The notes under the pieces: model-generated | What the model saw: only the letters and a program-made list of their open reading frames with translations | Told to the model about the DNA's origin: nothing | The model's database searches: none | DNA from: Hormiphora californensis | Lineage: Eukaryota; Animalia; Ctenophora | Assembly: GCA_020137815.1 (NCBI GenBank) | Contig: CM035351.1 | Span: forward strand, 2,418,001-2,482,000 | DNA: 64,000 nucleotides | Direction of reading: 5' to 3' | Part shown: in pieces, positions 25,829 through 63,880 of the stretch | How positions within the stretch are numbered: position 1 is the first letter of the stretch | Layout: each line of letters begins with the position of its first letter | Translations under genes and position numbers: made by a program

Positions 25829-25830
25829 GT

Positions 25831-28983: not shown

Positions 28984-29274
28984 TGTGAAAGGATCTGTCA
29001 GGGAGGTGTGTTATTGGTTACGAAGTCACCCCTATATTATTGCAGATAAAGGGGGTGTTAGGGGACTATACATTACTGCAAAGTGTTTTTATTTTAGGGT
29101 ACACATTTAGAGAGAAGACAATGGTTTCTGTGTAAAATAACGGTTAATATTTGATTAAAAAGAATACAGTAATTTCGCAGGTGTAGTAAAGAAAATAAAA
29201 GAGAGAGAGAGAATTATTACTGTTCTGTAACATTGCAGGGAGATGTGTGTAGTTAAATTAAATATTGTCTATTT

Positions 29275-31258: not shown

Positions 31259-31721
31259 AACTGGGAACTCAGATCGCTTTGCGCGGCTCTTTATGCCCCG
31301 CTTTGTATATTTTTCCGCCACGTCCATTAAATTGCGCCGCGCAGGTCTATAATATTAACGCCTGGCCCCAGCTAAAAAAATGTTTGGTTGGAATTTCATA
31401 TTTTTTGGAATTTCAACTAAACACTAAGAGGCGTGTGGTACCATTTATGCCGAGCGAAATTGATTTCAGAGTGACGTAATTTATTCTGTGTTTACCTTTA
31501 TAAATCGCTAGGGACGTGCGTGGTGTACCAGGAGTGGTGAATTATGCAGCCATTCTTTATTGTGTCTCTACCTCTTTTCTCCGTGTCCTAACACAATATA
31601 CCTATGGTACACCCGCACACGTGTTCCTTTTTCACTTTCCAGCCTTTTTTACTAAATTTTGGCTGTAACATAAGTGCGTGTCACAATAAGCTAACCTTTT
31701 TTACATTTTAGTGACAGTAAG

Positions 31722-38291: not shown

Positions 38292-41200
38292 TCATTCCAA
38301 CATGGGGCACGATTGGCAGACGTGTACATACAAATGTACAGGCTCATCTCCAATGCCCATTCGCACACTAATCTCCTCTAGATGTTGGGCAAGGGCCACA
38401 CACAGGTCACATGCACAGTTTTCAGCGGGCGACATGGTCGTCGCTTCTTCTATCATATCTGTCTGAGTCGCAGCGTCGCAGCGATCCCTAGTGGAGAACA
38501 GGAATGTTACTATGGTAACCTAATCTGAACAGTGGTGAACATGAACCATGGAGCATGAATGTTGCTACATGTTACTACTTGTATAGTAACAATTAACGAA
38601 TTAGGGGTGAACAATGGTATATGCAATGATTTATGAATACAAATATCAAGTTCTAGGAAGTTCTCCAAGCCATCTAGAAAACCCATTGGAGAACCTTTTA
38701 AACACGACGTAACACAGATTTCACTTGTCACAGATCAGTTTTTGCACAAACAATAAACATTGTGGAACACATTTAGTCAAGTGAAGAAAGGCTTTCCAAT
38801 CTTGTTATTGGTGAGCCGATCCACAGAATAACATACCACCGCACTTTTACTAACAATAACATGTAAAGAGTTTTCAAGAACAATGAAGGATTAAAAGAGT
38901 TTTACGATGTATACATACCAGGGCGTGTGAGTAAATCGGTCTTCAGGGACCAAAATGACTGAACTCGGATCATAGCTTTGCAATCGTTTTAATTTAATCG
39001 TCATCTGAAAATGGATGAATGATTAAAGTCGGTTACGGTTTGGAATTTGTTGTATGGAAGTTTAAAATTCAAAAAGACAGTGATTCTATTGACTAATGAG
39101 TCATTAGTTATGACTATTGCAAATACAATTACCTCAGTTTGAGTTGTCTGTCGTTTGTCCTCTGGTTTGATTTCAGGTAGAGATCCTGCCTCGAACGTAG
39201 GGTCACAGGGAAGACAAAGGGACAACTCTACTTTAGGAATGGTTTCCTCGGAAATATCAACTATCTCAATTATTTTTGGGTATCTCCCTTTCACCTCCCA
39301 TCTCTTTCTTGAAGATGAGGAGGAAGATGAGGAGGAAGAGCTATCAGAAGATGATGAGCTATCCGAGACGGAGGGGCTAGTTGAAGGATCTCCCACAATC
39401 AGCCTTCCGATTTCATAATCGTTCAGGTAGATAGGCTCAGGAAGTCGGAGAGTTAGAATGGTGGCTAGGAATAGTACCACATCATCAGAGCTCTCTCTCA
39501 GTTCAGGATGTGTGAAGTCTCGTGGGTTGAGATCAAGTGTTGGCAAGTCTAGGAACCGCTCAGCAGCGCTCAGAGATGCCTCAATTCTGGTCCAAGGAGG
39601 TTGTTCCATTATCACGATGAATGTAGGAATGTGTACTACAATTATTGTAACAAGCACACGTCCATCCCGTAGATCAGTGGTGAAATTATTTACCTCTGGG
39701 AATTGTCTTTGGAGTTGACCCAAAACTACAGTCTCACGTGATTCAGGATCCAAAGCTCTCAATGCTATTTCAGCGTGAGAAGAACTTGTACTGGTTGACC
39801 GAGATTTCTTGCTGGACTTGGATGATTTGGATGACTTGGAAGTCTTGGAAGAGTCACTAGAAGAACTGTCACTTGAGTCATCCTTTATCAGCGAAGCAGG
39901 CTTCTGGGATGATTTCTTGCTAGACTTGGATGTCTTGGATGTCTTCGACGCCTTGGAAGAGTCGCTAGAAGAACTATGATCTGAGTCACGCTTCTTTTCA
40001 GAAATGTCAACCTCCGGAGTTTTAGGTTTTACATCTGGCTGACTCTTTACGTTCACTGCAATGTCAGGAATATCCACGTCGGATTCGTCAGAAATCTGGA
40101 TATTTTGACTTGTCGAGGATGGCTTTTCAGAAGAGGGCGTGGGAAGTTCTGGATTCCTTGCTTTTAGTAGACTTGAAAATACCAGTTGCTTTACGCAAGA
40201 AACCTTTGAAACCTCCAATCTTAGCAGGTTTTTTGTCCTCAGACTTTTGGGTCGGTTGATTTCCAGTGGTGGAAGTTTTGATACTAGTTGAATTATCTGC
40301 AGGGTCCCGATTCAAAGAAAGTGAAACTTCGGGATCCTTTTTATCATCCTTCTTGGTGGTTGTTTTCGACGATGAAGGTGAACTCGAATCGTACTTCTTC
40401 AACAACTTAACTCGATTTGGAGGGTTCTTGGACGATCGAGAAACAGCCGGCTGACTTGATGAACTATTAGAAGTACCATCAGACTTGCTGCTAGAACTTG
40501 ATGAAGAGGTACTACTCGTATCGTACGACTTTAAAATGAAATCTTTCCAGGAGACCGATTCTTCGATTTACTGCCAGTTTTACTTGCAGTATGTTTATCC
40601 TTATTAGTTTTGGATTCGGACGTATCGGAAGAGTCGCTAAGGTAGTACTTCTTCCGTGAACCTGGCTCACTGGAAGATTTTTTGCCGGACTTGGATGTCT
40701 TGGAAGAGTCACTCGAAGAACTGTCACTTGAGTCATCCTTTTTATGCGAAGTAGATTTCTGGGATGATTTCTTGCTAGACTTGGATGTCTTGGACGTCTT
40801 GGAAGAGTCACTAGAAGAACTGTCACTGGAGTCATCCTTTATCAAGGAAGCAGGCTTCTGGGACGATTTCTTGCTAGACTTGGATGACTTGGAAGTCTTA
40901 GACGTCTTGGAAGAGTTGCTAGAAGAACTGTCACTGGAGTCATCCTTTTTCTGCGAATCAAGCTTCTGGGATGATTTCTTGCTAGACTTGGATGACTTAG
41001 AAGTCTTGGACGTCTTGGAAGAGTCACTAGAAGAACTGTCACTGGAGTCATCCTTTTTCTGCGAAGCAGGCTTCTGGGACGATTTCTTGCTAGACTTGGA
41101 TGACTTAGAAGTCTTGGACGTCTTGGAAGAGTCACTAGAAGAACTGTCACTGGAGTCATCCTTTTTCTGCGAAGCAGGCTTCTGGGACGATTTCTTGCTA

Positions 41201-44200
41201 GACTTGGATGTCTTGGACGTCTTGGAAGAGTCACTAGAAGAACTGTCACTTGAGTCATCCTTCTTATGCGAAGTAGATTTCTGGGATGATTTCTTGCTAG
41301 ACTTGGATGACTTGGAAGTCTTAGGACGTCTTGGAAGAGTCACTAGAAGAACTGTCACTGGAGTCATCCTTTATCAAGGAAGCAGGCTTCTGGGATGATT
41401 TCTTGCTAGACTTGGATGACTTAGAAGTCTTGGACGTCTTGGAAGAGTCACTAGAAGAACTGTCACTGGAGTCATCCTTTTTCTGCGAAGCAGGCTTCTG
41501 GGACGATTTCTTGCTAGACTTGGATGTCTTGGACGTCTTGGAAGAGTCACTAGAAGAACTGTCACTTGAGTCATCCTTTTTATGCGAAGTAGATTTCTGG
41601 GATGATTTCTTGCTAGACTTGGATGTCTTGGACGTCTTGGAAGAGTCACTAGAAGAACTGTCACTGGAGTCATCCTTTATCAAGGAAGCAGGCTTTTGGG
41701 ACGATTTCTTGCTAGACTTGGATGACTTGGAAGTCTTAGACGTCTTGGAAGAGTCGCTAGAAGAACTGTCACTGGAGTCATCCTTTTTCTGCGAAGCAGG
41801 CTTCTGGGATGATTTCTTGCTAGACTTGGATGACTTAGAAGTCTTGGACGTCTTGGAAGAGTCACTAGAAGAACTGTCACTGGAGTCATCCTTTGTCTGC
41901 GAAGCAGGCTTCTGGGACGATTTCTTGCTAGAATTGGATGTCTTGGACGTCTTGGAAGAGTCACTAGAAGAACTGTCACTGGAGTCATCCTTTATCAAGG
42001 AAGCAGGCTTTTGGGACGATTTCTTGCTAGAATTGGATGACTTGGAAGTCTTAGACGTCTTGGAAGAGTCGCTAGAAGAACTGTCACTGGAGTCATCCTT
42101 TTTCTGCGAAGCAGGCTTCTGGGATGATTTCTCGCTAGACTTGGATGACTTAGAAGTCTTGGACGTCTTGGAAGAGTCACTAGAAGAACTGTCACTGGAG
42201 TCATCCTTTGTCTGCGAAGCAGGCTTCTGGGACGATTTCTTGCTAGACTTGGATGTCTTGGAGGTCTTGGAAGAGTCACTAGAAGAACTGTCACTGGAGT
42301 CATCCTTTATCAGGGAGGCAGGCTTTTGGGACGATTTCTTGCTAGACTTGGATGACTTGGAAGTCTTGGACGTCTTGGAAGAGTCACTAGAAGAACTGTC
42401 ACTGGAGTCATCCTTTGTCTGCGAAGCAGGCTTCTGTGACGATTTCTTGCTAGACTTGGATGTCTTGGACGTCTTGGAAGAGTCACTAGAAGAACTGTCA
42501 CTGGAGTCATCCTTTATCAGGGAGGCAGGCTTTCGGGACGATTTCTTGCTAGACTTGGATGACTTGGAAGTCTTGGACGTCTTGGAAGAGTCACTAGAAG
42601 AACTGTCACTGGATCCATCCTTTTTCTGAGAAGCAGACTTCTGGGATAACTTCTCGTAGGACTTGGATGATTTGGAAGTCTTAGAAGAATCACTTGCAGA
42701 ATTATCACTCGATTTTTCCCTATTTGCAGATGTAGGAATCATTTTATGAGTTGTTGGCTGTGTGCTTTTAACTTGCACAGCTAGGTTCAAAACTTCCTCT
42801 GACTCACTAGACTCATCTGTCAGTGATCTGCTGGTAGTTTGGTCCTCTTTCTTACTGGTTCCACTTCTTGACAGCGTCTTAGTACTTGGCGAATCCTCGC
42901 TTGAGTCTGAGCTAGTTGAGCTAGTTTCAGAATCCTCTGAATCAATGGAAACAGTCACTGATTTGCTGATAGAAGTAGTATTTTTGCTAGTGGATGTTCC
43001 TGTTGTAGTCTGTTTCTCTGAAACGGTGGGCGTTTCGCGGTCGGTAAGAACTAACTTCGAACTATCAACCTTACTCGTAGTTTTTTCTTCTGTTTCCCAA
43101 TCTGTAACTGATTTGGAGGCAGTAACGGTAGAAGGCTTTGTAGAGGACTGATGAGAGGAGGAAGTAACTTCTGATGATGAAAGCGAAGAAGATTTGCTTC
43201 CAGAATCACTAGAATCGGAAGAAAGAGAGGTAGTGGTAATTGTTAAAACCAATCCAACTTGATTGTCCTTGCTATTTGAACTATCACTCGATGTACTCTT
43301 TGCCTTCGAAATAGATTTGGTCGGTTTGGATGTCTTGGACGTCTTGGAAGAATCGCTAGAGGAACTGTCACTTGAGTCATCCTTTTTCTGAGAAGCTGGC
43401 TTCTGGGATGATTTCTTACTAGACTTGGATGTCTTGGACGTCTTGGAAGAGTCACTTGAAGAACTGTCACTTGATTCATCCGTTTTCTGTGAAGCAGGCT
43501 TTTGGGACGATTTCTTGCTAGACTTGGATGACTTGGAAGTTTTGGACGTCTTGGAGGAGTCGCTAGAAGAACTGTCACTGGATCCATCCTTTATCAGTGA
43601 TGCTGGCTTCTGGGATGATTTCTTACTAGACTTGGATGTCTTGGACGTCTTGGAAGAGTCACTAGAAGAACTGTCACTTGAGTCATCCTTTTTATGCGAA
43701 GTAGATTTCTGGGATGATTTCTTGCTAGACTTGGAAGTCTTAGATGTCTTGGAAGAGTCACTAGAAGAACTGTCACTTGAGTCATCCTTTTTATGCGAAG
43801 TAGACTTCTGGGATGATTTCTTGCTAGACTTGGATGTCTTGGACGTCTTGGAAGAGTCACTAGAAGAACTGTCACTGGAGTCATCCTTTTTCTGAGAAGC
43901 AGGCTTTTGGGACGATTTCTTGCTAGACTTGGATGACTTGGAAGACTTGGACGTCTTGGAAGAGTCACTAGAAGAACTGTCACTGGAGTCATCCTTTATC
44001 AGGGAAGCAGGCTTTTGGGACGATTTCTTGCTAGACTTGGATGACTTGGAAGTCTTAGACGTCTTGGAAGAGTCACTAGAAGAACTGTCACTTGAGTCAT
44101 CCTTTTTATGCGAAGTAGATTTCTGGGTTGATTTCTTGCTAGACTTGGATGTCTTGGACGTCTTGGAAGAGTCACTAGAGGAACTGTCACTGGAGTCATC

Positions 44201-47200
44201 CTTTATCAGGGAGGCAGGCTTTTCGGACGATTTCTTGCTAGACTTGGATGACTTGGAAGTCTTTGACGTCTTGGAAGAGTCGCTAGAAGAACTGTCACTG
44301 GATCCATCCTTTTTCTGAGAAGCAGGCTTCTGGGATAACTTCTCGTAGGACTTGGATGATTTGGAAGTCTTAGAAGAATCACTTGCAGAATTATCACTCG
44401 ATTTTTCCCTATTTGCAGATGTAAGAATCATTTTATGAGTTGTTGGCTGTGTGCTTTTAACTTTCACAGCTAGGTTCAAAACTTCCTCTGACTCACTAGA
44501 CTCATCTGTCAGTGATCTGCTGGTAGTTTGGTCCTCTTTCTTACTGGTTCCACTTCTTGACAGCGTCTTAGTACTTGGCGAATCCTCGCTTGAGTCTGAG
44601 CTAGTTGAGCTAGTTTCAGAATCCTCTGAATCAATGGAAACAGTCACTGATTTGCTGACAGAAGTAGTATTTTTGCTAGTGGATGTTCCTGTTGTAGTCT
44701 GTTTCTCTGAAACGGTGGGTGTTTCGCGGTCGGTAAAAACTAACTTCGAATTATCAACCTTACTCGTAGTTTTTTCTTCTGTTTCCCAATCTGTAATTGA
44801 TTTGGAGGCAGTAACGGTAGTAGGCTTTGTAGAGGACTGATGAGAGGAGGAAGTAACTTCTGATGATGACAGCGAAGAAGATTTGCTTCCAGAATCACTA
44901 GAATCGGAAGAAAGAGAGGTAGTGGTAATTGTTAAAACCAATCCAACTTGATTGTCCTTGCTATTTGAACTATCACTCGATGTACTCTTTGCCTTCGAAA
45001 TAAATTTGGTCGGTTCGGATGTCTTGGACGTCTTGGAAGAGTCGCTAGAAGAACTGCCACTGGAGTCATCCTTTTTCTGTGAAGCAGGCTTCTTGGATGA
45101 TTTCTTACTAGACTTGGATGTCTTGGACGTCTTGGAAGAGTCACTAGAAGAACTGTCACTTGAGTCATCCTTTTTCTGAGAAGCAGTCTTCTGGGATGAT
45201 TTCTTACTAGACTTGGATGACTTGGAAGTCTTGGACGTCTTAGAAAAGTCGCTAGAAGAACTGTCACTGGAGTCATCCTTATTCTGAGAAGCAGGCTTCT
45301 GGGATGATTTCTTACTAGACTTGGATGTCTTGGACGTCTTGGAAGAGTCACTAGAAGAGCTGTCACTTGAGCCATCCTTTTTCTGAGAAGCAGTCTTCTG
45401 GGATGATTTCTTACTAGACTTGGATGACTTGGAAGTCTTCGAAGAGTCACTAGAAGAACTGTCACTTGAGTCATCCTTTATCAAGGAAGCAGGCTTCTGG
45501 GATGATTTCTTACTAGACTTGGATGACTTAGAAGTCTTGGACGTCTTAGAAGAGTCGCTAGAAGAACTGTCACTGGAGCCATCCTTATTCTGAGAAGCAG
45601 GCTTCTGGGATGATTTCTTACTAGACTTGGATGACTTAGAAGTCTTGGACGTCTTAGAAGAGTCGCTAGAAGAACTGTCACTGGAGTCATCCTTATTCTG
45701 AGAAGCAGGCTTCTGGGATGATTTCTTGCTAGACTTGGATGTCTTGGAAGAGTCACTAGAAGAACTGTCACTTGAATCATCCTTTTTCTGAGAAGCAGGC
45801 TTCTGGGACGATTTCTTGCTAGACTGGGATGTCTTGGACGTCTTCGAAGAGTCACTAGAAGAACTGTCACTGGAGTCATCCTTTATCAAGGAAGCAGGCT
45901 TCTGGGATGATTTCTTACTAGACTTGGAAGTCTTGGAAGTCTCCGACGTCAATTCTGATGACGAAAGCGATGAAGAATCGCTCCCAGATTTACTAGACTC
46001 CGAGGAAAGAGTGGTAGTGGTAATTGTTATAACCAGTCCATTTTTATTCTCTCTGTCTGTTGAACTATCACAAGTGTTATCCCTTGACGGTGATCCAAGT
46101 TTGCTAGACGTCTTGCTTAACGAATCCTTTCTTGAGTCTGGTTTCTTCAAAGGAATCATGTTGTTAGATTGTGGTTGTGCATTCTTAACTTTCACAGCTA
46201 GGTTCAAAACTTCCTCCGACTCACTAGACTCATCTGTCAGTGATCTGCTGGTAGTTTGGTCCTCTTTCTTACTGGTTCCACTTCTTGACAGCGTCTTAGT
46301 ACTTGTGGGCGAATTTAAATTTGAATCTGAGCTACTTGAGCTACCATCGGACTCCTCTGAATCAATGGAATCATCTGATTTCCTGGTTGAAGTAGTATCT
46401 TTACTAGAAACGGGTTCTTTATCTGATTTAGGACCTGTTTTACCGGATATATCAGATGAAGAAGTCTTATGAGAAGTTATTTTATCGATCTTCTTATAAG
46501 ATATAGATTCAACCCTTGAGTCTTGACTTGTAGAGTTTATCGAACTTGATGATTTTTTCGTTGACGAGGAATCAGATGAAGATTCATCGGAAGTCGACGA
46601 GGATTCATTTGAGGACGAGGACGATAGTGATGTGGTTGAGGACGTATTATCACTTTTTGTCTGGGACACTTTACTTGACTTTGATGAGAAATTCGTTCCT
46701 GATGTTTCTGAATCGAGATGAAGTAGAAGATCGATTTCCTGGGGATGTAACTCAATGGGATCTCTAGGATTCAATAGCATCAGTTGAACTATGAACATTG
46801 GAATCAAAGTTTTATCCTGGCGAGTGTGAGGATTTAAGAAATCTTCAGTTGATATATCATCCACAGGTATATCAAGATATCGTTCAGCAGCATTTAAAAC
46901 TGCCGAAATACGTTCTTGTGGGGGATGTTCAAGAACAATAACGAAGGCAGGAATGTAAACAACTATGAGCTGAACCAGGACTCTACCATCTGCTAAATCC
47001 GATGAAAGGTTGTTCACGTTAGGAAATTCATCCTGTAGGTTCCCCAAAACGGCAATGTTCATTTCTTCAGGTTCCAAATTTCTGAAATGTTCAACAAAAG
47101 TTTCAGTTGTAAAATTGGTTATAGTGGATGTTTTTCTGCTCTGTGACCCCACTATGGACTCTGTACTAAACTTGGATGTCTTGGAAGAAGCGCTAGAAGA

Positions 47201-50200
47201 ACTGTCACTGGATTCATCCTGTATCAATGAAGCAGGCTTCTCTGATTCATCATTCGACTCGAGTTTCTCTGACTTTGGTGACACAGGTCTTTGGTTAACC
47301 GTGACAGGAACAGATTTCACTGGCTTTTGTTCAACGAGTTCCTCTTCAGACAATTCATCGGAATCTGTAGATTTTTTCGAAATCTTGAAATCTATTTCTA
47401 GTTTCGGATGATCGGAAGCTGTGCTTTTGTTTTTGCTGGACGATTTCCTGCTAGAATTGGACTTCTTGGAGGAGTCACTATAAGAACTATCACTGGATCC
47501 ATCCTTTATCAGTGATGCTGGCTTCTGGGATGATTTCTTACTAGACTTGGATGTCTTGGAAGAGTCACTAGAAGAACTGTCACTTGAGTCATCCTTTTTC
47601 TGAGAAGCAGGCTTCTGGGATGATTTCTTGCTAGACTTGGATGACTTGGATGTCTTGGACGTCTTGGAAGAGTCACTAGAAGAACTGTCACTTGAGTCAT
47701 CCTTTTTCTGAGAAGCAGGCTTCTGGGATGATTTCTTGCTAGACTTGGATGAATTGGAAGTCTTGGAGGAGTCGCTAGAAGAACTGTCACTGGATCCATC
47801 CTTTATCAGTGATGCTGGCTTCTGGGATGATTTCTTACTAGACTTGGATGTCTTGGACGTCTTGGAAGAGTCACTAGAAGAACTGTCACTTGAGTCATCC
47901 TTTTTCTGAGAAGCAGGCTTCTGGGATGATTTCTTGCTAGACTTGGATGACTTGGAAGTCTTGGACGTCTTGGAGGAGTCACTAGAAGAACTATCACTGG
48001 ATCCATCCTTTATCAATGATGCTGGCTTCTGAGATGATTTCTTACTAGACTTGGATGTCTTGGAAGAGTCACTAGAAGAACTATCACTTGAGTCATCCTT
48101 TTTCTTAGAAGCAGGCTTCTGGGATGATTTCTTGCTAGACTTGGATGACTTGGAAGTCTTGGACGTCTTGGAGGAGTCGCTAGAAGAACTGTCACTGGAT
48201 CCATCCTTTATCAGTGATGCTGGCTTCTGGGATGATTTCTTACTAGACTTGGATGTCTTGGACGTCTTGGAAGAGTCACTAGAAGAACTGTCACTTGAGT
48301 CATCCTTTTTCTGAGAAGCAGGCTTCTGGGATGATTTCTTGCTAGACTTGGATGACTTGGAAGTCTTGGACGTCTTGGAGGAGTCGCTAGCAGAACTGTC
48401 ACTGGATCCATCCTTTATCAGTGATGCTGGCTTCTGGGATGATTTCTTACTAGACTTGGATGTCTTGGACGTCTTGGAAGAGTCACTAGAAGAACTGTCA
48501 CTTGAGTCATCCTTTTTCTGAGAAGCAGGCTTCTGGGATGATTTCTTGCTAGACTTGGATGACTTGGAAGTCTTGGACGTCTTGGAGGAGTCACTAGAAG
48601 AACTATCACTGGATCCATCCTTTATCAGTGATGCTGGCTTCTGAGATGATTTCTTACTAGACTTGGATGTCTTGGAAGAGTCACTAGAAGAACTAGTCAC
48701 TTGAGTCATCCTTTTTCTGAGAAGCAGGCTTCTGGGATGATTTCTTGCTAGACTTGGATGACTTGGAAGTCTTGGACGTCTTGGAGGAGTCGCTAGAAGA
48801 ACTGTCACTTGAGTCATCCTTTTTCTGAGAAGCAGGCTTCTGGGATGATTTCTTGCTAGACTTGGATGACTTGGAAGTCTTGGACGTCTTGGAGGAGTCG
48901 CTAGAAGAACTGTCACTGGATCCATCCTTTATCAGTGATGCTGGCTTCTGGGATGATTTCTTACTAGACTTGGATGTCTTGGACGTCTTGGAAGAGTCAC
49001 TTGAAGAACTGTCACTTGATTCATCCTTTTTCTGTGAAGCAGGCTTTTCTGAATCATCTTTTGATACGCTTTTCTCTGACTTTGGTGACACAGGTCTTTG
49101 GTTAACCGTGACAGGAACAGATTTCACTGGCTTTTGTTCAACGAGTTCCTCTTCAGATAATTCATCGGAATCTGTAGATTTTTTCGAAATCTTGAAATCT
49201 ATTTCTGGTTTCGGATGATCGGAAGCTGTGCTATTCTTTTTGCTGGACGATTTCCTGCTAGAATTGGACTTCTTGGAGGAGTCACTAGAAGAACTATCAC
49301 TGGATCCATCCTTTATCAGTGATGCTGGCTTCTGGGATGATTTCTTACTAGACTTGGATGTCTTGGACGTCTTGGAAGAGTCACTAGAAGAACTGTCACT
49401 TGAGTCATCCTTTTTCTGAGAAGCAGGCTTCTGGGATGATTTCTTGCTAGACTTGGATGAATTGGAAGTCTTGGAGGAGTTGCTAGAAGAACTGTCACTG
49501 GATCCATCCTTTATCAGTGATGCTGGCTTCTGGGATGATTTCTTACTAGACTTGGATGTCTTGGACGTCTTGGAAGAGTCACTAGAAGAACTGTCACTTG
49601 AGTCATCCTTTTTCTGAGAAGCAGGCTTCTGGGATGATTTCTTGCTAGACTTGGATGACTTGGAAGTCTTGGACGTCTTGGAGGAGTCACTAGAAAAACT
49701 ATCACTGGATCCATCCTTTATCAATGATGCTGGCTTCTGAGATGATTTCTTACTAGACTTGGATGTCTTGGAAGAGTCACTAGAAGAACTGTCACTTGAG
49801 TCATCCTTTTTCTGAGAAGCAGGCTTCTGGGATGATTTCTTGCTAGACTTGGATGACTTGGAAGTCTTGGACGTCTTGGAGGAGTCACTAGAAGAACTAT
49901 CACTGGATCCATCCTTTATCAGTGATGCTGGCTTCTGGGATGATTTCTTGCTAGACTTGGATGACTTGGAAGTCTTGGACGTCTTGGAGGAGTCGCTAGA
50001 AGAACTGTCACTGGATCCATCCTTTATCAGTGATGCTGGCTTCTGGGATGATTTCTTACTAGACTTGGATGTCTTGGACGTCTTGGAAGAGTCACTAGAA
50101 GAACTGTCACTTGAGTCATCCTTTTTCTGAGAAGCAGGCTTCTGGGATGATTTCTTGCTAGACTTGGATGACTTGGAAGTCTTGGACGTCTTGGAGGAGT

Positions 50201-53200
50201 CACTAGAAGAACTATCACTGGATCCATCCTTTATCAGTGATGCTGGCTTCTGAGATGATTTCTTACTAGACTTGGATGTCTTGGAAGAGTCACTAGAAGA
50301 ACTATCACTTGAGTCATCCTTTTTCTGAGAAGCAGGCTTCTGGGATGATTTCTTGCTAGACTTGGATGACTTGGAAGTCTTGGACGTCTTGGAGGAGTCG
50401 CTAGAAGAACTGTCACTTGAGTCATCCTTTTTCTGAGAAGCAGGCTTCTGGGATGATTTCTTGCTAGACTTGGATGACTTGGAAGTCTTGGACGTCTTGG
50501 AGGAGTCGCTAGAAGAACTGTCACTGGATCCATCCTTTATCAGTGATGCTGGCTTCTGGGATGATTTCTTACTAGACTTGGATGTCTTGGACGTCTTGGA
50601 AGAGTCACTTGAAGAACTGTCACTTGATTCATCCTTTTTCTGTGAAGCAGGCTTTTCTGAATCATCTTTTGATACGCTTTTCTCTGACTTTGGTGACACA
50701 GGTCTTTGGTTAACCTTGACAGGAACAGATTTCACTGGCTTTTGTTCAACGAGTTCCTCTTCAGATAATTCATCGGAATCTGTAGATTTTTTCGAAATCT
50801 TGAAATCTATTTCTGGTTTCGGATGATCGGAAGCTGTGCTATTCTTTTTGCTGGACGATTTCCTGCTAGAATTGGACTTCTTGGAGGAGTCACTAGAAGA
50901 ACTATCACTGGATCCATCCTTTATCAGTGATGCTGGCTTCTGGGATGATTTCTTACTAGACTTGGATGTCTTGGACGTCTTGGAAGAGTCACTAGAAGAA
51001 CTGTCACTTGAGTTATCCTTTTTCTGAGAAGCAGGCTTCTGGGATGATTTCTTGCTAGACTTGGATGAATTGGAAGTCTTGGAGGAGTTGCTAGAAGAAC
51101 TGTCACTGGATCCATCCTTTATCAGTGATGCTGGCTTCTGGGATGATTTCTTACTAGACTTGGATGTCTTGGACGTCTTGGAAGAGTCACTAGAAGAACT
51201 GTCACTTGAGTCATCCTTTTTCTGAGAAGCAGGCTTCTGGGATGATTTCTTGCTAGACTTGGATGACTTGGAAGTCTTGGACGTCTTGGAGGAGTCACTA
51301 GAAAAACTATCACTGGATCCATCCTTTATCAATGATGCTGGCTTCTGAGATGATTTCTTACTAGACTTGGATGTCTTGGAAGAGTCACTAGAAGAACTAT
51401 CACTTGAGTCATCCTTTTTCTGAGAAGCAGGCTTCTGGGATGATTTCTTGCTAGACTTGGATGACTTGGAAGTCTTGGACGTCTTGGAGGAGTCGCTAGA
51501 AGAACTGTCACTTGAGTCGTCCTTTTTCTGAGAAGCAGGCTTCTGGGATGATTTCTTACTAGACTTGGATGTCTTGGACGTCTTGGAAGAGTCGCTAGAA
51601 GAACTGTCACTTGAGTCATCCTTTTTCTGAGAATCAGGCTTCTGGGATGATTTCTTGCTAGACTTGGATGTCTTGGACGTCTTGGAAGAGTCACTAGAAG
51701 AACTGTCTCTGGAGTCATCCTTTATCAGTGATGCTGGCTTCTGGGACGATTTCTTGCTAGATTTGGATGACATGGAAGAGTCACTAGAAGAACTATCACT
51801 TGAGTCATCCTTTTTCTGAGAAGCAGGCTTCTGGGATGATTTCTTGCTAGACTTGGATGACTTGGAAGTCTTGGACGTCTTGGAGGAGTCGCTAGAAGAA
51901 CTGTCACTTGAGTCGTCCTTTTTCTGAGAAGCAGGCTTCTGGGATGATTTCTTACTAGACTTGGATGTCTTGGACGTCTTGGAAGAGTCACTAGAAGAAC
52001 TGTCACTTGAGTCATCCTTTTTCTGAGAAGCAGGCTTCTGGGATGATTTCTTGCTAGACTTGGATGACTTGGAAGTCTTGGACGTCTTGGAGGAGTCACT
52101 AGAAGAACTGTCACTGGATCCATCCTTTATCAGTGATGCTGGCTTCTGGGATGATTTCTTACTAGACTTGGATGTCTTGGACGTCTTGGAAGAGTCACTA
52201 GAAGAACTGTCACTTGAGTCATCCTTTTTCTGAGAAGCAGGCTTCTGGGATGATTTCTTGCTAGACTTGGATGACTTGGAAGTCTTGGACGTCTTGGAGG
52301 AGTCACTAGAAGAACTGTCACTGGATCCATCCTTTATCAGTGATGCTGGCTTCTGGGATGATTTCTTACTAGACTTGGATGTCTTGGACGTCTTGGAAGA
52401 GTCACTAGAAGAACTGTCACTTGAATCATCCTTTTTCTGTGAAGCAGGCTTTTCTGAATCATCTTTTGATACGCCTTTCTCTGACTTTGGTGACACAGGT
52501 CTTTGGTTAACCGTGACAGGAACAGATTTCACTGGCTTTTGTTCAACGAGTTCCTCTTCAGATAATTCATCAGAATCTGTAGATTTTTTCGAAATCTTGA
52601 AATCTATTTCTGATTTCGGATGATCGGAAGCTGTGCTATTCTTTTCGCTGGACGATTTCCTGCTTGAATTGGACTTCTTGGAGGATTCACTAGAAGAACT
52701 ATCACTGGACCCATCCTTTATCAGTGATGCTGGCTTCCGGGATGATTTCTTACTAGACTTGGATGTCTTGGACGTCTTGGAAGAGTCACTAGAAGAACTG
52801 TCACTTGAGTCATCCTTTTTCTGAGAAGCAGGCTTCTGGGATGATTTCTTGCTAGACTTGGATGACTTGGAAGTCTTGGACGTCTTGGAGGAGTCGCTAG
52901 AAGAACTATCACTGGATCCATCCTTTATCAGTGATGCTGGCTTCTGGGATGATTTCTTACTAGACTTGGATGTCTTGGACGTCTTGGAAGAGTCACTAGA
53001 AGAACTGTCACTTGAGTCATCCTTTTTCTGAGAAGCAGGCTTCTGGGATGATTTCTTGCTAGACTTGGATGACTTGGAAGTCTTGGACGTCTTGGAGGAG
53101 TCGCTAGAAGAACTATCACTGGATCCATCCTTTATCAGTGATGCTGGCTTCTGTGATGATTTCTTACTAGACTTGGATGTCTTGGACGTCTTGGAAGAGT

Positions 53201-56200
53201 CACTTGAAGAACTGTCACTTGAGTCATCCTTTTTCTGAGAAGCAGGCTTCTGGGATGATTTCTTACTAGACTTGGATGTCTTGGACGTCTTGGAAGAGTC
53301 ACTAGAAGAACTGTCACTTGAGTCATCCTTTTTCTGAGAAGCAGGCTTCTGGGATGATTTCTTGCTAGACTTGGATGACTTGGAAGTCTTGGACGTCTTG
53401 GAGGAGTCACTAGAAGAACTATCACTGGATCTATCCTTTATCAGTGATGCTGGCTTCTGGGATGATTTCTTACTAGACTTGGATGTCTTGGACGTCTTGG
53501 AAGAGTCACTAGAAGAACTGTCACTCGAGTCATCCTTTTTCTGAGAAGCAGGCTTCTGGGATGATTTTTTGCTAGACTTGGATGACTTGGAAGTCTTGGA
53601 CGTCTTGGAGGAGTCACTAGAAGAACTGTCACTGGATCCATCCTTTATCAGTGATGCTGGCTTCTGGGATGATTTCTTACTAGACTTGGATGTCTTGGAC
53701 GTCGTGGAAGAGTCACTAGAAGAACTATCACTTGAGTCATCCTTTTTCTGAGAAGCAGGCTTCTGGGATGATTTCTTGCTAGACTTGGATGATTTGGAAG
53801 TCTTGGACGTCTTGGAGGAGTCGCTAGAAGAACTATCACTGGACCCATCTTTTATCAGTGATGCTGGCTTCTGGGATGATTTCTTACTAGACTTGGATGT
53901 CTTGGACGTCTTGGAAGAGTCACTAGAAGAACTGTCACTTGAGTCATCCTTTTTCTGAGAAGCAGACTTCTGGGATGATTTCTTGCTAGACTTGGATGAT
54001 TTGGAAGTCTTGGACGTCTTGGAGGAGTCGCTAGAAGAACTATCACTGGACCCATCTTTTATCAGTGATGCTGGCTTCTGGGATGATTTCTTACTAGACT
54101 TGGATGTCTTGGACGTCTTGGAAGAGTCACTTGAAGAACTGTCACTTGAGTCATCCTTTTTCTGAGAAGCAGGCTTCTGGGATGATTTCTTACTAGACTT
54201 GGATGTCTTGGACGTCTTGGAAGAGTCACTAGAAGAACTGTCACTTGAGTCATCCTTTTTCTGAGAAGCAGGCTTCTGGGATGATTTCTTGCTAGACTTG
54301 GATGACTTGGAAGTCTTGGACGTCTTGGAGGAGTCACTAGAAGAACTATCACTGGATCTATCCTTTATCAGTGATGCTGGCTTCTGGGATGATTTCTTAC
54401 TAGACTCTGATGTCTTGGACGTCTTGGAAGAGTCACTAGAAGAACTGTCACTCGAGTCATCCTTTTTCTGAGAAGCAGGCTTCTGGGATGATTTTTTGCT
54501 AGACTTGGATGACTTGGAAGTCTTGGACGTCTTGGAGGAGTCACTAGAAGAACTGTCACTGGATCCATCCTTTATCAGTGATGCTGGCTTCTGGGATGAT
54601 TTTTTGCTAGACTTGGATGTCTTGGACGTCTTGGAAGAGTCACTAGAAGAACTGTCACTTGAGTCATCCCTTTTCTGAGAAACAGGCTTCTGGGATGATT
54701 TCTTGCTAGACTTGGATGATTTGGACGTCTTGGAAGAGTCACTAGAAGAACTGTCACTTGAGTCATCCTTTTTCAGAGAAGCAGGCTTCTGGGATGATTT
54801 CTTGCTAGACTTGGATGACTTGGAAGTCTTGGACGTCTTGGAAGAGTCGCTAGAAGAACTGTCACTTGAGTCATCCCTTTTCTGAGAAACAGGCTTCTGG
54901 GATGATTTCTTGCTAGACTTGGATGATTTGGACGTCTTGGAAGAGTCACTAGAAGAACTGTCACTTGATTCATCCTTTTTCTGAGAAGCAGGCTTCTGGG
55001 ATGATTTCTTGCTAGACTTGGATGACTTGGATGTCTTGGACGTCTTGGAGGAATCGCTAGAAGAACTATCACTGGATCCATCCTTTATCAGTGATGCTGG
55101 CTTCTGTGATGATTTCTTACTAGACTTGGATGTCTTGGACGTCTTGGAAGAGTCACTAGAAGAACTGTCACTTGAGTCATCCTTTTTCTGAGAAGCAGGC
55201 TTCTGGGATGATTTCTTACTAGACTTGGATGTCTTGGACGTCTTGGAAGAGTCACTAGAAGAACTGTCACTTGAGTCATCCTTTTTCTGAGAAGCAGGCT
55301 TCTGGGATGATTTTTTGCTAGACTTGGATGACTTGGAAGTCTTGGATGTCTTGGAGGAGTCACTAGAAGAACTGTCACTGGATCCATCCTTTATCAGTGA
55401 TGCTGGCTTCTGGGATGATTTCTTACTAGACTTGGATGACTTGGACGTCTTGGAAGAGTCACTAGAAGAACTGTCGCTTGAGTCATCCTTTTTCTGAGAA
55501 GCAGGCTTCTGGGATGATTTCTTGCTAGACTTGGACGACTTGGAAATCTTGGACGTCTTGGAGGAGTCACTAGAAGAACTATCACTGGATCCATCCTTTA
55601 TCAATGAGTCTGGCTTCTGAGATGATTTCTTACTAGACTTGGATGTCTTGGACGTCTTGGAAGAGTCACTAGAAGAACTGTCACTTGATTCATCCTTTTT
55701 CTGTGAAGCAGGCTTTTCTGAATCATCTTTTGATACGCCTTTCTCTGACTTTGGTGACACAGGTCTTTCGTTAACCGTGACAGGAACAGATTTCACTGGC
55801 TTTTGTTCAACGAGTTCCTCTTCAGATAATTCATCAGAATCTGTAGATTTTTTCGAAATCTTGAAATCTATTTCTGGTTTCGGATGATCGGAAGCTGTGC
55901 TATTCTTTTCGCTGGACGATTTCCTGCTAGAATTGGACTTCTTGGAGGAGTCACCAGAAGAACTATTACTGGATCCATCCTTTATCAGTGATGCTGGCTT
56001 CTGGGATGATTTCTTACTAGACTTGGAAGTCTTGGACGTCTTGGAGGAGTTACTAGAAGAACTGTCACTTGAGTCATCCTTTTTCTGAGAAGCAGGCTTC
56101 TGGGATGATTTCTTGCTAGACTTGGATGACTTGGAAGTCTTGGACGTCTTGGAGGAGTCGCTAGAAGAACTATCACTGGATTCATCCTTTATCAGTGATG

Positions 56201-59200
56201 CTGGCTTCTGGGATGATTTCTTACTAGACTTGGATGTCTTGGACGTCTTGGAAGAGTCACTAGAAGAACTGTCGCTTGAGTCATCCTTTTTCTGAGAAGC
56301 ATGCTTCTGGGATGATTTCTTGCTAGACTTGGATGACTTGGAAGTCTTGGAAGTCTTGGACGTCTTTGAGGAGTCACTAGAAGAACTATCAATGGATCCA
56401 TCCTTTTTCAGTGATTCTGGTTTCTGGGATGATTTCTTACTAAACTTGGAAGTCTTGGACGTCTTGGAAGAGTCACTAGAAGAACTGTCACTTGAGTCAT
56501 CCTTTTTCTGAGAAGCAGGCTTCTGGGATGATTTCTCGCTAGTCTTGCATGACTTGGAAGTCTTGGACGTGTTGGAGGAGTCGCTAGAAGAACTATCACT
56601 GGATCCATCCTTTATCAGTGATGCTGGCTTCTGGGATGATTTCTTACTAGACTTGGATGTCTTGGACGTCTTGGAAGAGTCACTAGAAGAACTATCACTT
56701 GATTCATCCTTTTTTTGAGAAGCAGGCTTGTGGGATGATTTCTTGCTAGACTTGGATGACTTGGAAGTCTTGGACGTCTTGGAGGAGTCAGTAGAAGAAC
56801 TATCACTGGATCTATCCTTTATCAATGATGCTGGCTTCTGAGATGATTTCTTACTAGACTTGGATGTCTTGGACGTCTTGGAAGAGTCACTTGAAGAACT
56901 GTCACTTGAGTCATCCTTGTTCTGTGAAGCAGGCTTCTGGGATGATTTCCTGCTAGACTTGGATGACTTGGAAGAGTCACTAGAAGTTCTGTCGCTGGAG
57001 TCATCCATTTTTTGCGAAGCAGGCTTCGGGGATGATTTTTTGCTGGACTTGGAAGAGTCACTTTTACTGGAGTCATCCTTTTTCGGGGAAGCAGGCATCT
57101 TCGATTTTTCTTTGTCAGATTGTGATTCTATTTCTGTCGCTTTCAATTGTTTTTTCTGATCATATTTAGGAGTTGACTTTACGGTATGGACAATTTCAAT
57201 TTCAATTTCATCCGATATTTCTTCAGTTTCTGATAAGGTTGAGGTTCTTTTGTCTTTACTTCTTGATTCATTGTGGTTGAAGTAGTCGGAGTTGATTTGA
57301 CTGTGTCCATCACATCCACTTTTTCTTCTTCAGATAATTCTTCTGTATCAGTCATAGGTGAATTTTTGTGTTGTTTTGCTGCCCTATCCACATGCTTTTT
57401 GGACTGTTTCTTGATCGGTTCTGCCTGTAGAAGTGAGGAGGAGGAAAATTGCAAAGTCAGAATTAGAGTCATTTTGTGATTCAAGACAAGTTGAGTTCAG
57501 TCCATCTACACGGATTTCTAACTCTGTTCCAGCTAGTCTAATACACTCTTCCACTGTGTCCTCTCTCTCCATTGTGGCTCGATAAATTCCCGGTATTTTG
57601 GTGTCTAACAACGCTGTTAAAGCAGAGCCATCTCTCCAAGAGACATCTAGATCCCTCACTTGGACCTTGTACGCTCTTATCGCTCTATTGACCGTGTCGA
57701 TAATGAGTGGTTTGAGTGGTAAATTCCTGGCCTGTGCCTGTGCTAAGGTAATTTGTGCTGGTTGGTCAGCATCAGAGGACGAAGAGGCCAATTCTTTCCT
57801 GACTTGTGGTTTTGGAGACCCTTCCGGTCGCTGGTAGACTTTCCTCACGTTAGTCATGACCGAGTTAAGACTTATCTTTCTGGGTTGTAGTCGAGTTGCA
57901 ACAAGCTCAGATAAGAATCGCTGTTTATGAATAAGGGACAGTGTCCCATTCACCCACCCACCAAGTGGGACATCACTCACTCCGATACCAAGTTGCTTTT
58001 CAGCGACCTCCAGACAGATCTTAATCCGAGTAATACTGTCAGTGAACTGGTACTTGGCGTACAACCCGGGAATGTAGCTATCCAACAGAGCTAACAACGC
58101 AATCCCATCATCCCAGTCCTCAACCAGGTTCTTGACCGTTATTTTACACGGCTGAGTTCGTCGGTTGATTCTAGCGAGCAGCTCAGGAAGATCGAACAGC
58201 TCGGTTATCTTCTCAAATTGGAGCTTTGGCAGCTCCTCCGTGAAGCAACCAATAAATGTAGCTAGAGCTCTCTCTGGTACACTCTGGTATACCACGCTAT
58301 ACCAACACAGCTGCACAGGAATGTTTAAGTACACTTTGGAGAATTTGAGGCAGGTTTTCACTCTCTCCTCCGCTGAAGGGTTGGCCATGTTTGCCTGGTA
58401 GAACCCTGGAATTTGTTGGTCTATCAGGATACTGATGAGTCTCCCGTCTCGCCATTCTCTGTCCCATGTCTTGACAGGATCCAGGGAGTAGTTCCTCAAG
58501 ATCAAGTTGGTTCGTTTCAGGATAACAGCCGGGTCCATGCCTTCTTGCTCCAAAATAGGCAGTGGGATACGAGTGTCATTCAGTAGGAACTTGTCAAACC
58601 TACTCAAATACCGAATCATAGCCGTTTTGTTGACTTTTGGATTGGTGAAATCGTTGACACTGATGACTCGCTCTACCTTGAGGTAATCCTCCGCGTACAG
58701 CATGCACTTTTCCACCCGGACACTCACCTCCACCGTTTTGAAAGTGTCGTGAAATCCGGGGATACAAGTATCAACAAGGACCGACAGGGCTATGCCGCTG
58801 TTCCAATCGGTGTTCAGGTTAGTTACCGGTTCTATCCTGGGAACGAGGTACTTGTTCAGGAACGTGATGAGAAGTTTCTCCGGGTCCTTTCCCTTTCTCT
58901 CCAGCTCACTAACGGTGAGTCGTCGTTTTCTCGGTTGTTGGACCCCCTCATCTTCCTCCGGGTCCTCAATGAATGTGGATCTCTTCATATAGAAGTCTGC
59001 CACTGCCCAAAGCAGGGCCTTTGTGGCAAACACATCCCCCTTTCCGATATCCCTCTCCCCGATACTGGTGAGCACGACCCCGTCTTGTTTCAGAACATTG
59101 AATGCGGTCCTCAGATTGTCAACCCTCTGGAAGAATGATTTGGGTTCTTTCTTGTGGGGAAGTCGTCTTTCAGCGACAACCTCGAGCAGCTCACATAGTA

Positions 59201-60676
59201 GAACACCACTCTGTACGTCAGTTGTAATGTCAGCCAGGACACTGGTCTTCTTTCCTCTCTTCAACTGAGCATTGATCCACAGGAAGGACGTTCTTTGAAG
59301 ATCATCCTCGGAAGATACTCCCGAGGGCCCTGGTCCCCCTGGACGGCGTGCTACGGAGTCCCTCTTACTTGGTGTTGTCAACTGTTTCCTTGGTAACGGG
59401 GTTGATTTTGGAGTTAGCTTGCTGAGCCCTTCTTCCAGTCTCAGACGGTTCAGTGGTGATCCAGAGGACCGGTTAGATCGGGACGCTAATGGTGATACAG
59501 GTGCAGATAAGCTACCACTAACACCCGGGCCAGCTATTATTGCAGGGATAATCTGAGACCTCCTCCTAGCCTTCTGGAAGTTGCCCCATTGGGTAGGATC
59601 CTCGGTGTAGGGCATTGTAACGGTATCCAGTTCGACTCTGAGGAAACACTTCAGATAGGTGATCATCGTGTTATCGTATCTCTTATCTTCTAACTTGAGG
59701 AGATCACCAGCCTCTAGAAAACTCTCAATCCCAATAACTTCGGCCGACTGAAGGGTCTTCTCAACTCTAACTCTCGGTGTCTCGTTCTTCATTGCCAGAT
59801 AGAATCCAGGTCTGAAAATGTCCACCAGGGCAGAAAGTGCCCGGCCATCCTTCCAGTCTGTGTTGAAGTTTTGAATGGGCTTCAACCCATACGGCATCAA
59901 CTTGAGGTTCAGATCATTTAGAATCAAATCCTGGTAACGTAGCTTCTTCCTGGTCTTGTTCACCTCCATCAAATCTCGAATACTAGCTCTCCTAGTGATA
60001 CTAGTCCTTCTAGTTGTTGCCTTCTTCAACAGGTCAGCGTGACTGAGGGGAGCAGCTCCCTCCTCTATGTTGATTTCCACATGCTGGTTCAGAAGGTCGT
60101 AGTTCAGAATCAAGATCCAGATCAGTCCCATAGTTATGTGTTGGTTGCCCTCGTAGATGTCCTCAGAACCAATGTTGGTCCTAACCACCTTGTCCCTATC
60201 CAACACAGACAGTGCTGTCTGAATGTTGGTACGCTTTTGGTACACACTGGTTGGGTCACGGGTAAATCCCAGTCGTGTTCCTTTTAGCACCTCCATCAGC
60301 TCACACAGCACAACTCCATCTCTTAGGTCCTCGAAAATGTTCTTGAACGTTCGCTCCGACCTCTTTTTACCTAACAAAAGCAGTGAAAAAGTCAAACAAG
60401 TGAATACAGTGAATACAGTCAAACAAGTTAATATAGGTACACATGTGTTTCCTAGAGTTATGTTTCACGATCAGCTAGCTGCTAAAAACATTCTAAGATG
60501 CTCCTATTCCTAAGCTAGGTTGCACCAAATACAAGTTTAATCTAAGTCATTACAACATGGATAATTAATGACTTACCAAGTCTAAGGCGGGTTTTGATCC
60601 ACCCAGTGAATGTTTTGCGTTGCATGACCGCCCATAACGGCGCCTCGCCACTAGATCGCTGTCTTCTTCTACTCAT
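38292..60676 (-). CDS. Giant (~7,200 aa) protein with 9 filamin-like calponin-homology domains, Ser/Lys/Asp repeat region and TQT/Cys-rich tail; exons 60676-60577, 60370-39133, ~39004-38919, ~38486-38292
   Basis: Exon 1 EAPLWAVMQRKTFTGWI splices to EDLRDGVVLCELMEVL..MGLIWILILNY (CH1). Further CH motifs: NFNTDWKDGRAL, DVQSGVLLCELL, NLNTDWNSGIAL, REWRDGRL, EDWDDGIAL, VSWRDGSAL, SDLADGRVL (~47000), TDLRDGRVL (~39670). Overlapping long ORFs join through ~6 single-base shifts. The terminal exons splice in phase to a TGA at 38292. Confidence 0.8.
39800..57100 (-). repeat. Coding tandem repeat array (90/99/108-bp units) with higher-order structure
   Basis: Unit KPAS(LIK/QKK)D(D/G)SSDSSSSDSSKTSK(TSK)(SSK)SSKKSSQ. 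A 207-bp dimer period is common, and larger blocks recur at 1608 bp (48853/50461) and 1689 bp (42762/44451). Confidence 0.97.
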
Positions 60677-62419: not shown

Positions 62420-63880
62420 CAGAAGGAGAGGACTACCGACCGGATCCACTTTTGCGGGAAAGGACTACCAATCACCAACACCCTCGGCCTAAGCTAAGAC
62501 GCAAACCCGCCCAGTCTGGATGGATACTGCTGCTGCTTCAGTACAGCACCATAACAGACAGCCACCATCACTCCATAAGCCCCCCCCCTCCCCCCGGAAA
62601 TCCACAGGCGCAAATGTGGGTTCGGTACTCCTCTCTTCAGGGTAAATGGTGTCCGGAAGAAAAGGCCGGTAGGTGACGTGGATGAGTGGCTTGTGATGTA
62701 CGCATTAAGCTGCGGTAAGGTGCTGGCTGAGTTGACTTGCGTGTTGTGCCAACTTTTTGAAGATGGTCAGTACCACAGCCTGTGGCACTGTACCACAGGC
62801 TGTGGTACTTTCCACCAGCCTAAGGAACCCTCACCCTAACTCTACCCCGGTGGAAAAGAAAGATGGAGAGAAAGGGAAAAAACAAAGAAAAAAAGAGAAG
62901 CGAAGAGAAGTGGATAAGAGAGAGGAAGAGGAGAGAGCGGGGTGGTTCATAGAAAAAAAAAAAAAAAAACCCCCCCAAAAAGGGAAAAAACCCCCCTTTC
63001 CCCCACCCCCCCCCCCCCCCGGGGGGGGAATTTTAAAAAGGGGGGTTTGGGGGGGGGGGGGAAAAAAAGGGGGGGGGAAAACCCTTAAAAAAATTTTTTT
63101 TAAAAAAAAAGGGGTTGGGGGGCCCCCCCAAAAACGGCCCAAGGTTCCCCCCCCAAAAAAAAAGAGGGGGGGGAAAAAATTTCCCCCGGGGGCCCCAAAA
63201 AAAAAAAAAAATTTTTTTTTTTAAAAAAAGGGCCCCCCGGGGGGGTTGGGGGTTTTTTTAAAAAAGGGGGGCCCCCCAAAATTTTAAAGGGCCCCCCCCC
63301 CCCGGGGGAAAAAGGGGGGGTTTTTTCCCCCCAAAAAGGGGGAAAAAATTTTCCCCTGGGGAGGGTTGGGGGGGGTTTTTAAAAAAAAAAAAAAGGGGGG
63401 GAAAGGTTTGGGGGAAAAAAGGGGGAAAAAAAAGGGCCCCCGGGGGGAAAAAAGGGGGGGCCCCCCCCCCAAAAAGGGGGGGTTTTTTTGGGGGGAAAAA
63501 ACGCCCCAGGGGGGGGGTCGCTCCATTTGCGAAGGACTACCAAAAATGGCCTAGCTGGAGAAATGGGTTCGTGTCTAGTACAGCCCCATAACAGACCCCC
63601 CTCCCCCGGAAATCCACAGCCGCAAATGTGGGTTCGGTACTCCTCTCTTCAGGTAAATGGTGTCCGGAAGAAAAGGCCGGGTAGTTGACTGGATGAGTGG
63701 CTCTTGTGATGGTACGCATTAAGCTGGGCGGTAAGGTGCTGGCTGAGTTTGCCTTGCCGTGTTGTGCCAAACTTTTTGAAGATGGTCAGTACCACAGCCT
63801 GTGGCACTGTACCACAGGCTGTGGTACTTTCCACCTAGCCTAAGGAACCCTCACCCTAACTCTACCCCGGTGGATAAATG
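62420..63880 (+). repeat. Two copies (~62420-62860, ~63520-63880) of a ~400-bp element with a 17-bp perfect hairpin, flanked by (GA)n and separated by low-quality sequence
   Basis: Both copies share aaatgtgggttcggtactcctctcttcagg ... agtaccacagcctgtgg-cactgta-ccacaggctgtggtact ... cctcaccctaactctaccccggtgga. Confidence 0.7.

Follow-up and report, generated by a model that had tools for sequence, protein, structure and literature searches.

Among giant proteins, titin/connectin and twitchin carry a PEVK spring, to which the giant charged segment described here offers a functional analogy, and alternating acidic-Ser and Lys-rich segments mark the Nopp140/Treacle family, whose own domains are LisH, SRP40_C and Treacle. 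Actin anchorage through calponin-homology (CH) domains is summarised in PMC7240100: CH1 binds F-actin, CH2 lends support and the linker between them tunes affinity. Jitterbug and FLN-2 are described as having three CH domains and long spacers of low homology (PMC3143143). Ctenophore muscle cells are described as centimetres long and as contracting tonically when stretched (PMC2215185); titin/connectitin is reported as absent from ctenophores in PMC12198301, and a separate, normal alpha-actinin is reported from Mnemiopsis (PMC13245172). We analyzed 64,000 nucleotides of the ctenophore Hormiphora californensis (contig CM035351.1, positions 2,418,001 to 2,482,000; hereafter the window, in whose numbering all coordinates are given). 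The minus strand at 38292..60676 encodes a real, expressed, conserved and giant tandem-CH protein of ctenophores that has apparently not been described before. A preliminary description had stated that no protein with such an architecture was known; our ctenophore-focused literature search, mainly of abstracts and covering few subscription journals, found none, and no characterised orthologue turned up in the searches made. Two candidates were rejected as different proteins: the comb-plate protein CTENO189, credited in its preprint with metalloprotease and death domains (10.1101/2022.03.27.486007), and the mesoglea 'mesocentin', presented as extracellular with filamin domains (10.64898/2026.02.02.702917). 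The supplement of PMC13749725 labels three Mnemiopsis muscle-cell genes as filamin, with no link to this gene established.

Gene structure, transcription and reading frame

RNA contigs show transcription and splicing of the gene, whose predicted product is a 7,204-residue protein (~760 kDa, pI 9.8) with nine CH domains and a Ser/Lys-rich repeat tail. We compared the locus with public sequencing runs: X1 and X2, which are RNA runs because they are spliced; X3 and X5, which are DNA; and X7, which is DNA from a second organism (X1-X3 come from one sample, X5 from a second sample and study). Contigs of X1 and X2 skip the coding introns 60576-60371, 39132-39005 and 38918-38488 and cover 57167-60366 together with both C-terminal exons; X2 additionally skips an intron in the 5' untranslated region (about 60842-60686). 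The first coding exon (60577..60676, ATG at 60676) is joined across a 206-nt GT..AG intron (60371..60576), which the DNA runs X3 and X5 retain, to a giant exon of 21,238 nt (39133..60370); RNA joints in X1 and X2 likewise define a small coding exon (38919..39004) and the last coding exon (38292..38487, stop at 38294-38292). In the C-terminal exons, which X7 also covers, its sequence differs by roughly 5-10%. Loose ends of RNA contigs map to unique tail islands at 47139, 43295/44984 and 42688/44377, so the middle of the giant exon is transcribed as well. The earlier proposal of one expressed giant gene is thus supported by spliced RNA at both ends and by three internal islands; its ~21.2-kb exon has the right length and RNA support at both ends, but continuity of the interior is presumed.

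The assembly breaks this gene into five minus-strand open reading frames (ORFs; 60464-57384, 57329-48693, 48928-41321, 41370-40531 and 40311-39001), which seven single-base corrections merge into one frame. For five of the seven breaks, reads supply the correction and show a single-base error of the assembly. One base at 57431-57433 is missing in all four runs compared, one at 57270/2 in the three covering runs (X1, X3, X5), one at 57280 in the same three (in X3, in one of two contigs), and one at 40153 in three of four (X1, X2, X5); X1, X2 and X5 also contain one extra base within 40392-40720, which frame logic places near 40532. Because a single 771-nt X1 contig spans 57167-57940 unspliced and crosses the TAG at 57384, that stop is an assembly error, and the reads rule out both a real stop there and a pseudogene. 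Two outcomes that would have counted against the gene, transcripts ending at 57384 and genuine frameshifts without expression, were not what we saw: RNA continues through 57384, and five breaks are read-corrected with RNA present. The remaining breaks, near 48695 and 41323 in the long repeat, each consist of a single variant, one base longer, of a motif present 89 and 95 times, and for that reason we treated them as errors, presumably of the assembly. Elsewhere in the window, 78% of bases at 62970-63530 lie in homopolymer runs of at least 5, flanked by two near-copies of one stretch; this segment looks like assembly noise, consistent with single-base errors in the gene.

CH domains, relatives and a distant orthologue

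The predicted protein reads CH1-CH2-CH1-CH2-CH2-CH2-CH2, then a 5,886-residue tail with one CH2-type domain inside, a ninth CH domain and a C-terminus with TQT motifs and a Cys/His cluster. CH1 and CH2 were distinguished with our own profiles, built from 14 reference proteins of filamin, dystrophin, utrophin, plectin, spectrin and nesprin type. In order, the head domains score 90 (CH1), 40 (CH2), 52 (CH1), 53 (CH2), 19, 29 and 21 bits (all CH2), which bears out the seven N-terminal domains first proposed, two CH1-CH2 pairs and three CH2-like. Pair 1 (59622..60625) is of canonical actin-binding type by profiles and structural relatives, with a linker of ~50 residues that holds RRTS and RRAS; pair 2 (58575..59300) has a more divergent CH1 and RRLT in its linker; the three further CH2-type domains (within 57427..58526) lie at 58526-58221, 58187-57975 and 57713-57495. 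The two divergent domains first placed at ~47000 and ~39670 were recovered by profiles and Pfam at 47056-46760 (9 bits), embedded in the tail, and at 39738-39442 (18 bits). Our Pfam scan covered four long ORFs, with the 280-residue repeat ORF 41370-40531 outside it; three contained solely CH families (CH E-values 5e-65, 3.6e-6 for the ORF with the embedded domain, and 8e-4) and the pure-repeat one nothing. The ninth domain was modelled with a CH fold (predicted local distance difference test, pLDDT, 84; Z 11.1 and root-mean-square deviation 2.7 A over 99 residues to alpha-actinin CH1), whereas the head model, built from a 3-sequence alignment, is uninformative on domain packing (pLDDT 55, predicted template modelling score 0.24).

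The head's best solved relatives are the actin-binding domains of filamin A/B (E 1e-23), then alpha-actinin (2e-19). CH1 of pair 1 retains QxKTFTxW and GNxxxxxGLIWxLIL, shared with filamin B, dystrophin, plectin and beta-spectrin, which supports the prediction that pair 1 is a canonical actin-binding pair. As in filamins, a CH1-CH2 pair stands at the N-terminus. The protein differs from them in having two such pairs and seven CH2 domains in all, and in that the Ig-type Filamin repeat PF00630 was found neither in the four long ORFs nor in four further pieces, with a library that detects the filamins' own. The extra CH2 domains recall jitterbug and FLN-2; a CH1-CH2-CH2 layout occurs in 68 of 204 fetched CH proteins. 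The spectrin repeats, EF-hands, plakin and WW parts of alpha-actinin, spectrin, dystrophin and plectin were likewise not detected in the scanned ORFs, so the preliminary description was right to report neither filamin Ig nor spectrin repeats. The protein shares with fimbrin/plastin two tandem actin-binding pairs per chain, and fimbrin Atlas clusters lie nearby at 0.87 (a lead only); the head, however, matches fimbrins at 1e-12 to 5e-4, against 1e-23 for the filamin/actinin type, and the protein lacks EF-hands, separates its pairs by a basic linker of ~105 residues and adds five CH2 domains and a giant tail. Fimbrin ancestry is unsupported by these comparisons. In the Atlas, the head fell among generic CH/fimbrin clusters, all under 0.9, and the last exon gave no cluster. 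By the defining features tested, the predicted protein is not a filamin, a spectrin-family member, a titin, a Nopp140 or a phosphophoryn.

Only four proteins among 1.84 billion representatives reached E 1e-30: two Pleurobrachia bachei models, P0008 (210 residues) and P0001 (662 residues), which are 99% and 98% identical fragments of the head; P0002; and a nematode poly-CH filamin. P0002, an ENA entry that is probably a ctenophore protein, is 39% identical and has the same 1-2-1-2-2-2-2 head, found in no other of 208 fetched proteins, followed by Ser/Asp/Lys repeats. Two further entries, P0089 and P0165, carry the ~120-residue repeat of P0002 for up to ~2,080 residues and then four CH2 domains, and the predicted layout is thus conserved in a distant orthologue (P0002, P0089/P0165). 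In a 52-row CH tree (two duplicate utrophin rows removed; drawn without alpha-actinin or a named fimbrin), domains 1-6 pair one-to-one with those of P0002 (1, 3 and 4 starred), domains 8-9 cluster with the four CH2 domains of P0165 (100/92), and the CH1 and CH2 classes group with Mnemiopsis P0023 (95/81 and 98/95), all of them outside the starred spectrin, plectin, dystrophin and nesprin groups. A 30-row tree of joined pairs unites the family with P0023 at a Shimodaira-Hasegawa-like likelihood-ratio value of only 89, with a long-branch protist row drawn in; filamins are its nearest outside rows by path, joined by no starred branch. In both trees the actin-binding domains form their own group with P0002 and P0023 and nest in neither filamin group.

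Other ctenophore or CH-rich proteins resemble this one in part. P0023 (KAL5252660.1) has one CH1-CH2 pair and then an acidic E/V/P/A-rich repeat, nearer in composition to PEVK than the tail described here. P0016, P0018 and P0025 (2,300-2,800 residues; P0025 is P. bachei sb/3460445/) have three CH2 domains in Ser-rich spacing and no CH1; they share a conserved C-terminal CRKCxR[RK]K and, ahead of their first CH2, an RRx[ST] motif. We found no functional description for any of these four. Four others (P0015, P0017, P0054 and P0009, the last a Mesorhabditis protein with filamin repeats) have 8-18 tandem CH domains; with 10-18 CH domains in a row also present in other proteins, a high CH number alone is not unique. 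No relatives occurred among 200 pattern matches from a JGI metagenome scan, and searches for longer proteins, limited to those of at most 5,000 residues and so with full-length orthologues outside their range, returned only filamin, dystrophin, plectin and spectrin types (5 and 35 matches).

The repeat tail and C-terminus

The tail (39770..57430; arrays at 47454-57053 and 40690-45950) is of low complexity, with 40.5% Ser, 19.8% Lys, 9.8% Asp and 6.5% hydrophobic or aromatic residues and a net charge of +496. Short units make up 3,555 of its 5,886 residues. It holds 119 acidic-Ser blocks, 97 of whose 118 spacings are 33 or 36 residues, and a ~95-residue island with [PL]EIDFKIS is present four times. 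A ~560-residue non-repeat block occurs twice (about 45030-44380 and 43340-42690, in the minus-strand array 40690-45950), indicating higher-order duplication.

The repeats are under coding constraint as protein, with the frame kept and variation mostly synonymous. Core spacings are multiples of 3 in 66 of 68 cases, and the two that are not, 316 and 109, exceed a common spacing by a single base each. Per-site nonsynonymous/synonymous ratios are 0.15 and 0.08 over 128 and 122 copies, which are not independent, and 0.43 and 0.49 with each allele counted once; the other two sense frames contain 147 and 776 stops. These frame and codon statistics rule out read-through of a non-coding satellite, and the >5,000-residue disordered tail claimed at the outset stands, at 5,886 residues with coding constraint. 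Summed contig depth over a repeat unit (39860-39947) exceeds that of unique sequence about 30-35x in RNA and about 3,300x (X5) and 1,300x (X7) in DNA, ratios that do not give a copy number; the DNA excess may be a sign of an array that is longer or collapsed, or of DNA resembling the unit at other sites.

Charge in the tail has a period of 33-34 residues, and its blockiness exceeds that of shuffles (z 13). There are 211 CK2-consensus sites and 952 S/T-x-K/R sites, and simulated CK2 phosphorylation brought the net charge to +74 with 211 sites modified or to -246 with 371, blockiness rising to z 20-31; by this modelling, the tail would be strongly blocky only if phosphorylated. The 'acidic blocks' themselves carry only about 3 Asp each. 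In P0165 the repeats are net acidic (-124 over 2,080 residues) and not blocky (z 0.3-1.5, with or without simulated phosphates). The label 'block polyampholyte' thus survives in part: the repeats are as first quoted and blockier than chance, but the blocks are poor in Asp, the net charge is strongly positive and the pattern is absent from the orthologue. Because of that orthologue, the conserved trait is taken to be a giant Ser/Lys/Asp-rich chain, predicted to be disordered, and not the block pattern. The only likeness between the 95-residue island and the orthologue unit is a short stretch of PE[IL]D[FL]K[IL]S type, their alignment not being significant (E 1.5).

The tail shares with titin giant size, a long low-complexity charged segment and, as predicted here, an actin-anchored end; it differs in lacking Pfam matches to Ig, Fn3 or kinase domains, in being built of S/K/D and not P/E/V/K, and in that no myosin-binding part was identified. 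Its alternating acidic-Ser/Lys-rich segments and CK2 sites do recall Nopp140/Treacle, as was first proposed, and also Ki-67, but this likeness holds within H. californensis and is lost in P0165, and the protein has a CH head and no Nopp140/Treacle family match at Pfam E 0.01.

Beyond the tail, the last 154 residues contain two TQT[ED] motifs against 0.04 expected (motif and region were chosen post hoc), the first at 39153-39133, at the end of the giant exon, and the second at 38477-38456, in the last exon. Both fit [TVI]-Q-[TV]-[DE], one has D at -4 and neither has K at -3, so they agree in part only with the LC8 anchor motif as given in PMC3078936. The Cys/His cluster of the last exon has no Pfam or Atlas match. 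A candidate basic amphipathic helix (40171..40219) has the highest hydrophobic moment of the tail, 0.65, and by eye a similar segment follows the last CH of P0089/P0165. Sites of RRx[S/T] type are the established PKA consensus. The head has six [RK]Rx[ST] sites against 1.6 in shuffles (P 0.006) and the P0002 head five against 1.3 (P 0.0065); all are in linkers, four at positions aligned between the two, and an RRx[ST][IV]x[DE]L-type motif lies upstream of CH2 domains here and in the paralogues P0016, P0018 and P0025.

Possible functions

Since F-actin is known to be bound by CH1 and pair 1 retains the consensus stretches for actin binding, the interpretation we lean towards, at a little better than even, is a ctenophore-specific giant actin cross-linker whose CH head would grip actin, whose disordered tail would act as a phosphorylation-tuned tether and whose C-terminus would anchor it. 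Pair 1, and perhaps also the more divergent pair 2, would bind F-actin, so that, like fimbrin, a single chain could gather filaments into bundles; the gripping module would be of filamin/actinin type, though the two-pair layout is fimbrin-like. PKA-type sites in the CH linkers would switch affinity for actin. The tail could serve as an entropic spacer or spring; generic polymer scaling gives a radius of gyration of about 24 nm for the coil and a full extension of about 2.2 micrometres. CK2-type phosphorylation would lower its net charge from +496 towards zero or below. Length and disorder may be all that the tail needs, given that the orthologue's differs in sequence, charge and blockiness. 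At the far end, anchorage or dimerisation through LC8 or a membrane would fall to the embedded CH2 domains, together with the amphipathic helix and the TQT motifs.

Several points weigh against this interpretation. The second CH1 is without part of the consensus (LLWAVAD for LIWxLIL) and, so eroded, may not bind actin, and the linker of pair 1 is ~50 residues long against ~16 in filamin B. P0002 and P0089/P0165 lie on different contigs, tied by shared repeats alone (67-93%), and repeat sequence, blockiness and net charge (+0.08 against -0.06 per residue) differ between the orthologue and this gene. The TQT motifs and Cys/His end are known from this species only, the orthologue's end being beyond comparison. 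Near 48695 and 41323, two of the seven frame corrections are deduced from the repeat pattern, and short-read contigs leave a single mRNA with the whole tail as an extrapolation; splicing within the repeats may occur. Actin binding, localisation, cell type and phosphorylation are all predictions.

The same features admit other explanations. A tail that is glue rather than spring, with its Lys/Ser-rich chain sticking to tubulin tails, F-actin or acidic lipids until phosphorylation releases it, would make the protein an actin-microtubule or actin-membrane cytolinker; the net charge, the abundant S/T-x-K/R sites, the weak CAMSAP_CH and CH_2 matches, the basic amphipathic helix and the LC8-type motifs all suit such a role, which we nonetheless consider unlikely, as the repeats of the orthologue carry net negative charge and the model of the ninth domain fits actin-type CH domains (Z 10-11) better than EB1, SPEF1 and Hec1 (Z 6.5-7.6). 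Phosphorylated acidic-Ser blocks might instead phase-separate, forming dense plaques on actin. The 33-34-residue charge period and the effect of simulated CK2 (+496 to +74 or -246; z 13 to 20-31) fit this condensate scaffold, and Ki-67/NPM1 phase separation is reported to be set by charge blockiness with blocks of about 30-40 residues (PMC9106583); but P0165 is not blocky, whether or not phosphates are simulated, Nopp140/Treacle Pfam matches are missing and phosphorylation was only simulated, which leaves the idea improbable.

It might also be that the CH head and the C-terminus carry the function, the tail being a runaway coding minisatellite of near-neutral length or mostly spliced out, as could be read from unit sequences that differ between lineages, from the non-significant island alignment and from repeat depth so much lower in RNA than in DNA (again not a measure of copy number). 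The kept frame and mostly synonymous variation, the RNA contigs that reach three internal islands and the fact that a lineage whose head is only 39% identical still has a giant repeat tail with CH domains inside it make this a shade less credible again. DSS-rich blocks resemble those of phosphophoryn and silaffins, and with 960 Ser in 121 core blocks (a count from the repeat-core analysis) the protein might bind cations or mineral, with statolith cells and colloblast granules as possible sites. This we regard as very improbable: a hydropathy scan shows no hydrophobic N-terminal stretch (maximum 11-residue value 0.5), in agreement with the initial view that there is no signal peptide, the CH head is of cytoplasmic type, and Asp, at just 9.8%, is outweighed by Lys. 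The phosphophoryn/silaffin likeness suggested earlier is weakened by the missing signal peptide.

Returning to the actin cross-linker, its wider significance would lie in ctenophore muscle, whose independent origin is an open question. A conserved, ~760-kDa predicted actin-binder with a giant disordered chain is a candidate for a missing elastic or tethering element, a stand-in for titin, and its tail offers a natural model for disordered regions of great length whose charge phosphorylation would switch. Annotation-based surveys would miss the whole protein, because the public P. bachei models are the 210- and 662-residue head fragments. It is possible, if rather doubtful, that ctenophores independently evolved a giant molecular spring, with a PKA-controlled double CH head, a Ser/Lys/Asp chain of micrometre length with its stiffness set by mass phosphorylation and an LC8-dimerised anchor, which would give passive elasticity or catch-like tone to very extensible smooth muscle or tentacles and would head a ctenophore family of CH-plus-disordered-spacer proteins.

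Elsewhere in the window, Pfam identified a voltage-gated potassium channel-like ORF (10266-11984, plus strand; BTB_2 and Ion_trans) and an ORF with RRM, MYND and Tudor domains (31695-32957, plus strand), a layout we take to be TDRD1-like. Weak to moderate matches to F-box-like, INT10, MazG, Chromo and Glycos_transf_2 were found at 1020-1826, 8370-9041, 28429-29010 and 29787-30413 on the minus strand and 34549-35190 on the plus strand. Retroelement pieces with endonuclease and reverse transcriptase ORFs lie at 4218-5912 (plus) and 23847-25856 (minus).

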